This document shows positions 26,830-29,845 of a DNA stretch of 64,000 nt, piece by piece. The position numbers were made by a program, and so were the translations under genes. The notes below the pieces were generated by a model. The model was not told the DNA's origin, searched no databases, and saw only the letters and a list, made by a program, of their open reading frames with translations. This DNA is from a virus (Duplodnaviria; Caudoviricetes): positions 64,001-128,000 of the IMG/VR virus record IMGVR_UViG_3300011862_000001; one strand, written 5' to 3'. Each line of letters begins with the position of its first letter. Position 1 is the stretch's first letter.

Positions 26830-26882
26830 ACAGGTGTTGCCTTTAATGTGTATTGTCACTCGTTTCAATAAGGAATAATCCC

Positions 26883-27479
26883 ATGTCCCGTCGTAAAAAG
26901 CTTAACGGTTACAACCCTAAACAAGAAGCGCGCGATGCTATCATTCGCCAGATGCGTGCGATTAATAGCACTGAGCATCTCTTTATCCACGAATCCCGTC
27001 TGATGGCGGATAACCTGGATGCGGAAATGGCAAGCCTGGCGGCAATTGCTGATCCTGACCTGCGTACCTATTTGCAGGGGCGTATGGAAATCGTTAAGAA
27101 AGGCTATGCTGGCCTGTTGCAAGAGTTCTTGCAGAAGATTGCTGATGTTCGCACCCCGGCTGATAAAGTTGCCACGGCCATGATGGACCGTCTGGCTAAC
27201 GAGAAGTGGGATGCGGTGCGTGATGTCTTCACACTCACTGAAATCCAGCTCGGCGCAGCTGAAACTGAAGCAGTGGTGCTGGGTCAGTCCGCGATGGGTG
27301 CTGGGATTGATTTGTTTACCGACTACGCCTCACGTCGTGCTGCCGTTGATCGCGGTATCAAGGCCAATGCCTCCACCCAAGATATCCTGGCGCAGATGAC
27401 CGCGCTTGATAAAGAACTGGCTGAAAAACAGACGGCTGCTGAAGATGCGTCCGTCTCTGAGGAACCGAACAATGTCTGA
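26883..27479 (+). CDS. hypothetical alpha-helical protein
   Basis: TAAGGA RBS before ATG 26883; good codon bias. Confidence 0.8.
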   Translation: MSRRKKLNGYNPKQEARDAIIRQMRAINSTEHLFIHESRLMADNLDAEMASLAAIADPDLRTYLQGRMEIVKKGYAGLLQEFLQKIADVRTPADKVATAMMDRLANEKWDAVRDVFTLTEIQLGAAETEAVVLGQSAMGAGIDLFTDYASRRAAVDRGIKANASTQDILAQMTALDKELAEKQTAAEDASVSEEPNNV

Positions 27480-29406
27480 ACAACTTGACCCGCGCCCGTC
27501 TGTGGTGCGTCGTGACGAAACCCCTGCGCCGGAGACTGCATCATTCGTGATGCTTCCCGACGAACAGCTGCGCGTCCTCGATAAGGGGACCGCAGTCATG
27601 GAGCTGCTTCGTACCAACCCCACTTTTTCTTTGATCGAAGCCGGTCGTCGTTACGAAGCGTGGGCTGCTGCACAGGCACCTGCCCCACAGCCAGAACCGG
27701 TTGCTGTTAAACCGGAACCCGTTGTCGAACCCGCACCGGTGGTTCCACCTGCTCCAGCACCAACGCCGGAACCGGAACCGGTCGTGACGGCACCTGTCAC
27801 TCCTGTTGCCGCTGCTGCGGTTAACACTGCCGTGGTAGACCCTGCGACGGTTGCTGCTCAGACCTTGATTGAAGAATCGCGTGCTGATGCCGCCCCGCAA
27901 GTGGCCAGTGTCAAAGTGCGTCGTACCAACTTCGGTACCCAACCGCATCGTGAAGAAATTTCTACGCTGGCGGAAGATGACCCGCACCAGATTCTGATTC
28001 GCTCTGATGAACTGATTGGCAGTACCGTGCCGATTACCGGTGAGGAAGACGTGCGTCGTTTCTTTGCCAGTATCAAGCGTAATGGTAAAGGCCAGCCGAT
28101 GTTCGCCTCCGAAGCAGAAGCGGAACGTTACCAGACCCTGGTCACTGCACTCGAACTGACCCCGCCGAATGGTGGTAACGGTCGTCCGGCGTTTGACACT
28201 GCGCTTGAGCGTGAAGACACGGCCTGGACACAACAGCTGCGTCTGCCTGACGGTAAGTGGGTAGGCCCGGTAACGGACCGTGGTGCTGGGGCACCGGGTG
28301 CACTTGCTGCGCTGCGTCGTCGTCGTCAGTCCGGTTCTCCGGTGTCGGTGTGGTTACCGGCTACCGGTATCTACGTGGGCTTTCGTGCACCGCTTGAGCG
28401 CGAGATGTGCGACTTCGATATTCGTCTGGCTGCGGAAACGGCGCAGATTGGGATGCAGACCTATGGCCTGTTGCTCTCAAGCATGTCGGGTGTGTACCTG
28501 CGTCACATGGTGGAACATTCACTGAACTTCGCTGTGGAAACCACCTTTGACTGTCAGGGTAATGACATCAAAACCGCACTGATTGACATTGTCGATCTCG
28601 ACGATTACTGGTTGCTGCTGCTCGGCCCAATCATCGCCAAGTTCCCAAGCGGGATTCCGTGGAAGCTGATTTGTCCGAAAGACTGTGGGCATGAGCGTGA
28701 TGTACGTTTGAACCTGGCTCGCTGTATCCGTATGGCAGACGGCCTGTTCACTGACCTGCATCGCTCTTTGCTGGCGCGTCAACGCGGTACCACCAACCGC
28801 ATTATCAGCCCGGAAGATTACCTGGCGTACCGTAACGACCTGCCGCACAACCCGGCTGCGGTGTTTGCCCGTCCTGACCTCGGTATCACCATTAACTTTG
28901 GTCGCTCGACCATCGGTGATTACCTGGACAGCACCGACCGTTGGTTAGAAGAAATCAACCGCTCTGCAACCGAAGCCCTGTCGTCTAACGCCAGTGACTA
29001 CGAGCGCAGCCAACACATTCGCTTAACGGCGGAGATTCGTCGTCTGACGCGTCACGCCCACCACATCAAATCCATTACCGTGGAAGAAGAAGTGAAAGGC
29101 GAAGTGGTGGAAGTCGTGGAAACCGACCCGGCCAAGATTGTCGAGATTCTCGAAGAGCTGTCGTCTGACCGTCCGTATGTGTTAGCGTTTGAAGATGCGC
29201 TGGCAAAATACAACGACCTGTCACGCTTAGCAGTCCTCGGCTATATGGGTCACCCGTGTCCACACTGTAAGACACCTGAAGGCGAAGAAGACGGACCGTT
29301 CCGTGGTATTGTTACCATTTCACCGGACCGGGTTTTTTTCGTGCTATCTCGTGTGGTGTCCGAGATACAGAAAGTCTATTTACAACAATTCGCAAATATT
29401 GGCTAG
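27472..29406 (+). CDS. conserved protein with Pro/Ala-rich linker and two CxxC-type motifs; candidate tail/baseplate-hub assembly chaperone (G form)
   Basis: GAGGA RBS; CPKDC and CPHC motifs; slippery TTTTTTC near the 3' end. Confidence 0.7.
   Translation: MSEQLDPRPSVVRRDETPAPETASFVMLPDEQLRVLDKGTAVMELLRTNPTFSLIEAGRRYEAWAAAQAPAPQPEPVAVKPEPVVEPAPVVPPAPAPTPEPEPVVTAPVTPVAAAAVNTAVVDPATVAAQTLIEESRADAAPQVASVKVRRTNFGTQPHREEISTLAEDDPHQILIRSDELIGSTVPITGEEDVRRFFASIKRNGKGQPMFASEAEAERYQTLVTALELTPPNGGNGRPAFDTALEREDTAWTQQLRLPDGKWVGPVTDRGAGAPGALAALRRRRQSGSPVSVWLPATGIYVGFRAPLEREMCDFDIRLAAETAQIGMQTYGLLLSSMSGVYLRHMVEHSLNFAVETTFDCQGNDIKTALIDIVDLDDYWLLLLGPIIAKFPSGIPWKLICPKDCGHERDVRLNLARCIRMADGLFTDLHRSLLARQRGTTNRIISPEDYLAYRNDLPHNPAAVFARPDLGITINFGRSTIGDYLDSTDRWLEEINRSATEALSSNASDYERSQHIRLTAEIRRLTRHAHHIKSITVEEEVKGEVVEVVETDPAKIVEILEELSSDRPYVLAFEDALAKYNDLSRLAVLGYMGHPCPHCKTPEGEEDGPFRGIVTISPDRVFFVLSRVVSEIQKVYLQQFANIG
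29334..29367 (+). promoter_or_regulatory. putative programmed -1 ribosomal frameshift signal
   Basis: In-frame heptamer T TTT TTC (29334-29340), then 4 nt, then hairpin TATCTCG-N9-CGAGATA. Confidence 0.7.
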
Positions 29407-29813
29407 ACGCCGACGACATCCCCTCGGGGACCATCATCAACGCCTTAAAGCTGGATACCACCTCGCTGTTTAAACAGCGCAGCAGCCGTCCCATTACGTA
29501 TCAGGAAGCGCACGACGAGTTATTGTCGACCTACGACGGTGTGTTGGACCTGAACACCGGCGAGAACAACGTCGGGCTGTCTGATTTCGAGAACCCGATG
29601 ATGGGTTCGTTGTACGAAATCTGGATGTCGACGTATGTGCGTGAACAGATTGGGGAAATCTTCCGTGTTAGTTTCGATGAGTTCCTCAATCGACCACGGT
29701 GGGAAATGATGAAGATGTTGGAAGTCGCGAAACGTCGTACTGCGGAGTTGAAAAAGACACACGACAGCGTTGTCCCGGACGATTGGGAGAAGCAGTTGCA
29801 GGGTCGTTTATAA
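29340..29813 (+). CDS. -1 frame extension (T segment) of the 27472 protein; chaperone-like C-terminus
   Basis: Frame is open from 29280 to 29813 with no good RBS/start; C-terminal IFRVSFDEFLNRPRWEMMKML resembles tail-chaperone T / T4 gp51-type segments. Confidence 0.65.
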   Translation, partial: RAISCGVRDTESLFTTIRKYWLDADDIPSGTIINALKLDTTSLFKQRSSRPITYQEAHDELLSTYDGVLDLNTGENNVGLSDFENPMMGSLYEIWMSTYVREQIGEIFRVSFDEFLNRPRWEMMKMLEVAKRRTAELKKTHDSVVPDDWEKQLQGRL

Positions 29814-29816
29814 TAG

Positions 29817-29845
29817 AAGGGGCTTCGGCCCCTTTATTTTTTTTT
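29817..29845 (+). terminator. intrinsic terminator
   Basis: AAGGGGC-TTCG-GCCCCTT and T tract. Confidence 0.9.

Follow-up and report, generated by a model that had tools for sequence, protein, structure and literature searches.

Reading frames at the cg18 locus

The DNA analyzed here, hereafter called the window, is a stretch of 64,000 nucleotides (nt) that corresponds to positions 64,001 to 128,000 of the IMG/VR record IMGVR_UViG_3300011862_000001, a viral record of 236,909 bp that carries terminal repeats, and its nearest relatives in GenBank are the Erwinia Machinavirus phages (approximately 78% nucleotide identity). The present study is concerned with one gene of the window, the Chimalliviridae core gene cg18, which encodes a protein of 644 amino acids (aa), and with the -1 reading frame that overlaps its 3' end. 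The original prediction, made from the sequence of the window, had proposed a hidden -1 frameshift on a T-rich heptamer, by which the locus would encode a second, C-terminally extended protein. The 644-aa open reading frame (ORF), the heptamer T_TTT_TTC at 29334 to 29340 and the -1 frame, open between 29280 and the TAA that ends at 29813, were all found as it had described them. The site comprises the following features.

27472 to 29406, plus strand: 0-frame ORF of the short form (644 aa), starting with ATG 27472; cg18, homologue of phiKZ gp77, Goslar gp081 and SPN3US gp39
29333 to 29339, plus strand: homopolymeric run of seven T's (T7), present as T6 to T8 in 37 of 37 related loci
29334 to 29340, plus strand: slippery heptamer T_TTT_TTC, the candidate site of the -1 shift; in frame, with the 0-frame codons GTT TTT TTC (Val-Phe-Phe) preceded by CGG
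29340 to 29813, plus strand: -1 extension of 157 sense codons plus TAA (29811 to 29813), composed of a linker of approximately 35 aa and a helical C-terminal domain (PHROG 7580)
29341 to 29403, plus strand: dual-frame zone, with a conserved 21-aa tail ending in Ile-Gly in the 0 frame and the beginning of the linker in the -1 frame
29404 to 29406, plus strand: TAG stop codon of the short form, ending exactly 67 nt past the T run in 25 of 25 SPN3US-type loci
29407 to 29522, plus strand: stretch annotated as intergenic, coding in the -1 frame and without a start codon
29523 to 29813, plus strand: 96-aa ORF of the ORF callers with a TTG start; a truncated reading of the extension rather than a gene of its own
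29816 to 29844, plus strand: strong intrinsic terminator with an 8-bp GC-rich stem (29816 to 29835) followed by T9, which ends the transcription unit after the -1 stop

A slip at the heptamer would join residues 1 to 623 of the 644-aa protein to 157 further residues, which gives a product of 780 aa. The earliest ATG, GTG or TTG of the -1 frame in the window is the TTG at 29523, 61 codons past the slip site. As the original prediction had pointed out, this codon lacks a convincing ribosome-binding site: no Shine-Dalgarno sequence of the GGAG or AGGA type was seen before 29523, nor before the ATG at 29598, unlike the starts at 27472 and 29880, which are preceded by GAGGA and AGGAAAGG, respectively. 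The TTG start of the ORF caller is a truncation artifact. The claim that transcription terminates after 29813 and not after 29406 also holds, with the stem and T9 tract listed above and no terminator found after the 0-frame stop; a transcription unit that ends after the -1 stop rather than the 0-frame stop counts in favor of a frameshift.

Conservation of the overlap in related phages

The comparison covered 37 loci, i.e., 22 from GenBank (the window plus 21 annotated loci, representing at least 15 genera) and 15 from IMG/VR, several of which belong to uncultured phages; some phages occur in both sets. The GenBank set includes SPN3US, phiKZ, 201phi2-1, PhiPA3, RAY, Goslar and PCH45 as well as phages of Ralstonia, Vibrio, Xanthomonas and Klebsiella, and it spans a divergence down to approximately 22% protein identity with phiKZ. 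A small downstream ORF lies in the -1 frame in all 22 GenBank loci, e.g., in the pairs SPN3US gp39/40, phiKZ gp77/76.4, 201phi2-1 gp136/135, PhiPA3 gp074/073, RAY gp267/266 and Goslar gp081/082. In each of them, the -1 frame is open over a T6 to T8 run that codes for Phe-Phe and is located 27 to 135 nt before the 0-frame stop. All 15 IMG/VR loci read [GC]TT TTT TTC, carry a TAG that ends 67 nt past the run and have 151 to 162 open -1 codons. The alignment of orthologous loci, which had been suggested as a check together with the original prediction, thus speaks for the site: an in-frame T_TTT_TTY is present in 20 of the 22 GenBank loci and in 15 of the 15 IMG/VR loci, and the -1 overlap is conserved in 37 of 37. 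The codon preceding the heptamer, which specifies Val, Leu, Thr, Gly, Ile or Tyr, always ends in T in the 20 GenBank loci.

The extension measures 151 to 173 codons from slip site to stop in every lineage. Its C-terminal part of approximately 110 residues can be aligned throughout the family, and the first 40 or so residues are variable, rich in Gly, Pro and Ser and linker-like. With tblastn, the -1 product of the window is 58.6% identical to that of SPN3US across all 157 residues, and it aligns from residue 1 in SPN3US, Kwan, EarlPhillipIV and other SPN3US-type phages despite the absence of a start codon at this position; in CR5, the local alignment ends at residue 133. The 0-frame product aligns through its last residue in the same SPN3US-type records. 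With both products matched over the shared stretch, the -1 one from its start and the 0-frame one up to its end, the 64-nt overlap is conserved. The tail that follows Phe-Phe in the 0 frame has the pattern FF-[TIVAQ]-L...[QR]-K throughout the family and is a 21-residue tail ending in Ile-Gly in the SPN3US group. Because of this conserved tail, the short form looks like a finished protein and not like a by-product.

The pattern of nucleotide variation in the five closest genomes (the window and four Erwinia Machinavirus phages) follows both frames. In their junction alignment, the T run, the TAG and approximately 130 nt around them are nearly invariant, and the flanks vary at every third base; past the TAG, this period-3 variation follows the -1 frame. 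Between 29099 and 29279, 69 of 181 columns are variable, 44 of them at third positions of the 0 frame. The dual-frame zone from 29341 to 29403 varies in 6 of its 63 columns, with 4 of the 6 being third positions of the -1 frame. From 29407 to 29522, i.e., in the stretch annotated as intergenic, the 31 variable columns comprise 28 third, 3 first and 0 second positions of the -1 frame.

Another way to read the locus is to follow the annotation and assume two genes. Translation of the small ORF would then begin at a start of its own, either TTG 29523 or ATG 29598, perhaps through reinitiation once the ribosome has reached the upstream stop; that the -1 frame is open across the T run would be coincidental. 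This corresponds to the annotation of the 21 related GenBank loci with the exception of SEGD1, and a 4-nt overlap of stop and start codons, as annotated in 201phi2-1, is in itself sufficient to place a downstream gene in the -1 frame. However, the first possible -1 starts are located at nonhomologous positions, between 8 and 85 codons past the slip site (85 in phiKZ, 68 in RAY and 61 in the window), and the annotated starts scatter over the same range; conserved motifs lie upstream of the starts in these three phages. In the window, the 61 codons that lack any start are nevertheless conserved as protein and show the third-position pattern of a coding sequence, and the missing Shine-Dalgarno sequences before 29523 and 29598 also argue against independent initiation. 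Finally, genes that are independent of each other would not be expected to keep the -1 phase, with the frame open across the T run, in all 37 loci. We therefore regard two separate genes as a very improbable explanation.

The segment immediately upstream of the T run deserves a separate remark. Positions 29280 to 29332 vary in 5 of 53 columns in the five closest genomes, synonymous sites included, which makes the segment as invariant as the dual-coding zone, and among ten SPN3US-type genomes the third positions before the T run vary at 16 of 18. The low variation in the closest genomes could reflect an upstream element or merely local low divergence.

Sequencing error, decay and fused forms

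The ORFs of at least 150 aa in the window contain 25 in-frame X_XXY_YYZ heptamers, and a long -1 extension is found at this site only, with 157 codons versus 42 for the next best of the 25, so that the site exceeds what chance would give. TTT-TTY is, furthermore, a rare spelling of Phe-Phe in the window, accounting for 8 of 68 such pairs (TTC-TTC, 39; TTC-TTT, 21; TTT-TTC, 7; TTT-TTT, 1).

Contigs from a pig-gut metagenome are approximately 99% identical to positions 28990 to 29813 of the window; they may stem from its source sample or from a closely related strain.

One of these contigs, 490 nt in length, spans positions 28990 to 29479 with five substitutions and no gap. Since it aligns without a gap, T7 is the real length of the run. 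A second contig from the same pig-gut run has three more substitutions further downstream. All eight single-nucleotide polymorphisms are at wobble positions of the frame expected under the frameshift model: the five upstream ones in the 0 frame and the three downstream ones in the -1 frame, one of the latter at 29522, directly before the TTG.

A natural single-frame, fused form of approximately 780 aa was not found among 38 homologues of similar length (633 to 706 aa), and it is also absent from a scan of 1.84 billion representative proteins, in which the extension domain appears in ORFs of 71 to 165 aa that begin in the middle of the domain. Two seemingly fused proteins were examined and rejected; a further candidate, P0066 (580 aa), matched with E 1.7e-4 in five short stretches. 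The 312-aa protein P0040 comes from a Logan contig (SRR24775682, 630-760) of a close relative that has two 1-nt deletions, one of them approximately 95 nt upstream of the run and the other within it (T6 instead of T7); the gene call exists because of these deletions, and the contig looks like assembly noise rather than a natural variant. The 795-aa ORF of Enterobacteria phage SEGD1 (KU726251.1) has an intact T7 and results from a scrambled patch of approximately 15 nt plus one extra base. The patch is situated approximately 25 nt upstream of the T7 and wrecks the invariant RGIVTISPD motif, and because of the destruction of this motif the fusion is probably a sequencing or assembly error. The lack of a natural fusion means that two frames, and hence presumably two products, have been maintained by selection across the whole family.

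A sequencing error in the T run had been named with the original prediction as what would speak against it. Such an error could have split one continuous ORF, or the locus could be a decaying pseudogene. Homopolymers are indeed prone to sequencing errors, the SEGD1 record annotates one long ORF and one Logan contig has a T6. However, 37 loci that were assembled by many groups agree in the T run and in the 0-frame stop, and the run is confirmed by the ungapped metagenome contig; SEGD1 retains the T7 and owes its fusion to the scrambled upstream patch, the Logan contig carries two separate deletions, and both reading frames are under purifying selection. For practical purposes, artifact and decay are refuted.

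Mechanism of the probable frame change

On comparative evidence, recoding at this locus is very likely, and the pair of a 644-aa and an approximately 780-aa trans-frame protein that had been put forward originally is very probable. We assign a probability of roughly 0.7 to the more specific reading that the two products of 644 and 780 aa arise from a programmed -1 ribosomal frameshift at the T run. Ribosomes translating an mRNA of the cg18/gp77 family would reach U_UUU_UUC (29334 to 29340) with tRNA-Phe in both the P and the A site. The majority would stay in frame, add the conserved 21-residue tail and stop at the TAG ending at 29406, thereby releasing the 644-aa protein. A fraction would slip back by one base, with both tRNAs re-pairing on UUU, and would read 157 codons of the -1 frame up to the TAA ending at 29813. 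The resulting 780-aa long form would consist of the first 623 residues, the linker and a helical C-terminal domain of approximately 120 residues. With respect to the sequence of the site, the class H_HH.U_UU.Y, to which U_UU.U_UU.C and U_UU.U_UU.U belong, is among the most efficient -1 motifs in Escherichia coli, and U_UU.Y is the second-best tetramer in this bacterium (Sharma et al., PMC4066793).

The frame could alternatively be changed in the transcript. A polymerase, probably one of the phage's own multisubunit enzymes, would add a U on the A7 template, and the share of the mRNA with U8 would encode the long form in a single frame, with the same protein outcome as a shift on the ribosome. 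This scenario is consistent with the homopolymer of 6 to 8 T's in all lineages, with the lack of a conserved RNA structure alongside the run and with the absence of a perfect heptamer in PhiPA3 and D6. Furthermore, E. coli genes contain fewer U7 and A7 runs than expected, whichever of the three frames is considered, and transcriptional slippage is a possible reason (PMC4066793). The cg18 genes are likely transcribed by phage polymerases. Arguments against slippage in the transcript come from the length and the phase of the run. By the standard of the bacterial polymerases studied to date, 6 or 7 is a short run for slippage to be efficient, and the Vibrio phage with only six T's has nevertheless the exact phase for T_TTT_TTC. 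In 20 of the 22 GenBank loci, the run is in the phase that allows re-pairing of the tRNAs, which transcription would not need.

A shift on the ribosome is therefore favored over one in the transcript, because in 20 of 22 lineages the phase of the run lets both tRNAs re-pair, because the Vibrio phage reaches the full heptamer with just six T's and because 6 to 7 U's are short for polymerase slippage. Slippage of the polymerase is in our view unlikely. The same holds for its family-wide version, an equally doubtful scenario in which one of the highly divergent multisubunit polymerases of the phage slips on A7/T7 and thereby provides a fixed share of U8 mRNA in all of these phages. If true, a jumbo phage polymerase would for the first time be credited with programmed recoding in the transcript. 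The two isoforms may differ in their destination (cytoplasm versus phage nucleus), since one of them alone carries the helical C-terminal domain.

Several points weigh against a programmed ribosomal frameshift. PhiPA3 (G_TTT_TTT) and D6 (A_TTT_TTT) lack the full heptamer, and the tetramer U_UU.Y may cover these two phages. A run of 7 to 8 U's could also make an RNA polymerase slip. SPN3US and Machina have an ATG approximately 36 codons into the extension, from which a free small protein could also start. None of the listed public sequencing runs that contain this stretch is on record as RNA, and no proteomics data for the junction were found. The remaining points concern the structure downstream of the heptamer, for which the original prediction had proposed the following element.

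29345 to 29367, plus strand: 7-bp inverted repeat TATCTCG (29345 to 29351) / CGAGATA (29361 to 29367), starting 4 nt past the heptamer

The inverted repeat is present at the predicted distance, and 7 of 8 SPN3US-type sequences retain a core of 5 bp. Its proposed role as a signal received no support: the region from 29334 to 29420 has a minimum free energy of -16.3 kcal/mol, which corresponds to z = 0.0 in comparison with shuffled sequences, and neither covariation nor compensatory changes were seen in the SPN3US-type sequences. Conservation of the hairpin had been suggested as a further check; 60 nt folded downstream of the run in 18 loci revealed no common structure (z between -2.3 and +1.0). 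A function of the hairpin as a frameshift stimulator is thus unsupported.

Many distant lineages share a GG or GGG right before the T run, in differing codon phases, e.g., CGG GTT in the window and in RAY and xxG GGT in PCH45, KpLz-2_45 and SPLA10. The spacing between GG(G) and the run differs from that of the Shine-Dalgarno-like sequences that are known to stimulate -1 shifts, and because of this spacing we did not count GG(G) as a stimulator.

Comparison with known systems and significance

In gene 10 of phage T7, a -1 shift on a U-rich site near the 3' end leads to the proteins 10A and 10B, and most ribosomes make the short form. The cg18 locus resembles this system in that a slip near the 3' end of the gene would yield a C-terminally extended minority product. 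The difference lies in the extension: 10B has about 50 added residues of the capsid protein and no separate domain, whereas the extension described here is a conserved linker plus domain of approximately 157 residues that databases carry as a separate gene, and the protein it would extend is encoded by a core gene of the whole family. E. coli dnaX and orfAB of insertion sequences (IS) are alike in the -1 shift of bacterial ribosomes on X_XXY_YYZ heptamers, and the heptamers of IS elements include U_UU.U_UU.C (PMC4066793). In dnaX, however, the shift shortens the protein and is accompanied by an upstream Shine-Dalgarno sequence and a strong hairpin, whereas the cg18 product would be lengthened and no conserved stimulator was found.

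Since this kind of mechanism is well known, the cg18 site would be a new instance and not a new principle. No description of a recoding site at this position in phiKZ-like phages was found in full-text literature searches, in agreement with the original prediction, and neither a paper nor a database record marking the frameshift site was found in these searches and in the records examined. Likewise, the main text of two transposon mutagenesis papers does not mention the cg18 gene. The gp77 of a preprint on the structure of Goslar was considered as a possible match and rejected, as it is a different protein, a capsid decorator.

Nucleus-forming jumbo phages are being studied intensively and their core genome has been catalogued, yet cg18 has remained a bare "hypothetical protein." Should the frameshift prove real, the annotation of this locus is wrong in all genomes of the family, with a small ORF truncated at arbitrary starts, and a core gene has two isoforms whose ratio the slip site determines. 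In that case, the extension domain would be a universal part of the family proteome, and mutants that make only the short or only the long form would provide a concrete handle on function. The site would also represent a deeply conserved case of -1 recoding in bacterial viruses beyond the classes of tail chaperones and transposases.

Identity and possible function of the products

The assignment of the 644-aa protein to cg18 (phiKZ gp077, Goslar gp081 and RAY gp267) is based on tblastn matches to phiKZ gp77 (E 2e-14), 201phi2-1 (E 2e-13), RAY (E 3e-12) and Goslar (E 1e-10). In the supplement of the core-genome study, cg18 is listed as a "hypothetical protein" and RAY gp266, i.e., the small ORF, appears nowhere (PMC10299810). 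In contrast to this list, all family members examined here possess the extension domain, and inconsistent calls of the start codon probably hid it from the core genome.

No Pfam family was found for either part of the long form at E <= 1. The matching PHROG families (8054 and 4585 for the 644-aa part, 7580 and 12109 for the extension) have no assigned function. The N-terminal 135 residues or so of the 644-aa protein are rich in Pro and Ala and predicted to be disordered. Throughout the SPN3US group, four cysteines (Cys401, Cys405, Cys596 and Cys599) do not vary; they could form a putative zinc site. The AlphaFold model of the 644-aa protein has a predicted local distance difference test (pLDDT) score of 59, with better-defined parts at residues 190 to 300 and 430 to 585, and no match in the PDB at E <= 0.001. 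The extension domain is modeled as all-helical with a pLDDT of 80, exceeding 95 at residues 90 to 140 or thereabouts; no solved structure matched it above a Z score of 4.8, a level that carries no meaning for helical proteins. A complex prediction with two copies of this domain scored 0.01, which speaks neither for nor against self-association.

The original prediction had also interpreted the two products as a pair of tail assembly chaperones of the G/GT type and had noted a resemblance to the hub chaperones gp26 and gp51 of phage T4, in either case outside the tail operon. With respect to lambda G/GT, the recoding logic is indeed alike, i.e., two forms share their N terminus owing to a -1 shift near the 3' end, very divergent phages retain the site and its phase even where their sequences differ, and selection presumably acts on a constant proportion of the two forms. 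The likeness ends with this logic. The proteins are not homologous, a U run takes the place of a slippery site of the G_GGA_AAG type, and with 644 aa the short form is approximately five times larger than the G proteins, which are generally known to have about 140 aa. Instead of being located between the tail tube and tape-measure genes, the 644-aa ORF has a helicase gene, a gp78-like gene, a gene for a 284-aa protein and an RNA polymerase subunit gene as neighbors. The label of a G/GT-like tail chaperone has thus failed the tests of location, size and homology.

The resemblance to T4 gp26 and gp51 (PF12322) persists in weak similarities of fold and features and in a C-terminal motif, CPxC...RG...FFxL; family searches and profile comparisons gave no significant match. 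A Foldseek search against viral models returned, apart from orthologues, one weak match of the 644-aa model (pLDDT 59) to a "baseplate hub assembly protein, T4-like" (E 0.018, 128 columns). In the ESM Atlas, carriers of PF12322 make up 24% of a feature cluster (0.90) and 14% of a structure cluster (TM score 0.53). The end of T4 gp26, CPECGKTH...RGLKEFFELL, resembles CPHC...RGIV...VFFVL at the slip site. For 201phi2-1 gp136/gp135 there is no note of detection by mass spectrometry, whereas the neighboring gp138 has one, which fits a factor that is not part of the virion. On the other side, no Pfam family and no fold in the PDB were matched as described above, and PF12322, against which T4 gp26 and gp51 score 216 and 178 bits, was absent from a scan of the whole genome and was not matched by ten orthologues at E <= 10. 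In hhalign comparisons, the probability was at most 10% for T4 gp26 and gp51 (gp26, 10%, E 0.003), and a family profile compared with a gp26-family profile reached 0.4% (E 0.15). T4 gene 26 has two products as well, the full-length protein and 26', but 26' arises from an internal in-frame start and not from a frameshift; gp26 has 208 aa and gave no significant match in sequence or profile comparisons. A chaperone pair of either type is accordingly quite improbable. A non-virion assembly factor that is distantly like T4 gp26/gp51 is the best lead for the function of cg18, albeit a weak one.

In the hhalign comparison with T4 gp26 (probability 10%), the Phe-Phe of the slip site, within the compared stretch at window positions 29257 to 29346, corresponds to the Phe-Phe that closes the T4 protein. 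T4 gene 26, which is encoded on the minus strand, spells this pair TTC TTT, which is not slippery.

Upstream, the gene is preceded by the gp78-like neighbor.

26853 to 27479, plus strand: upstream gene in the position of phiKZ gp78

The stop codon of this gene overlaps the ATG of the 644-aa ORF (ATGTCTGA), and the gene order is shared with the relatives.

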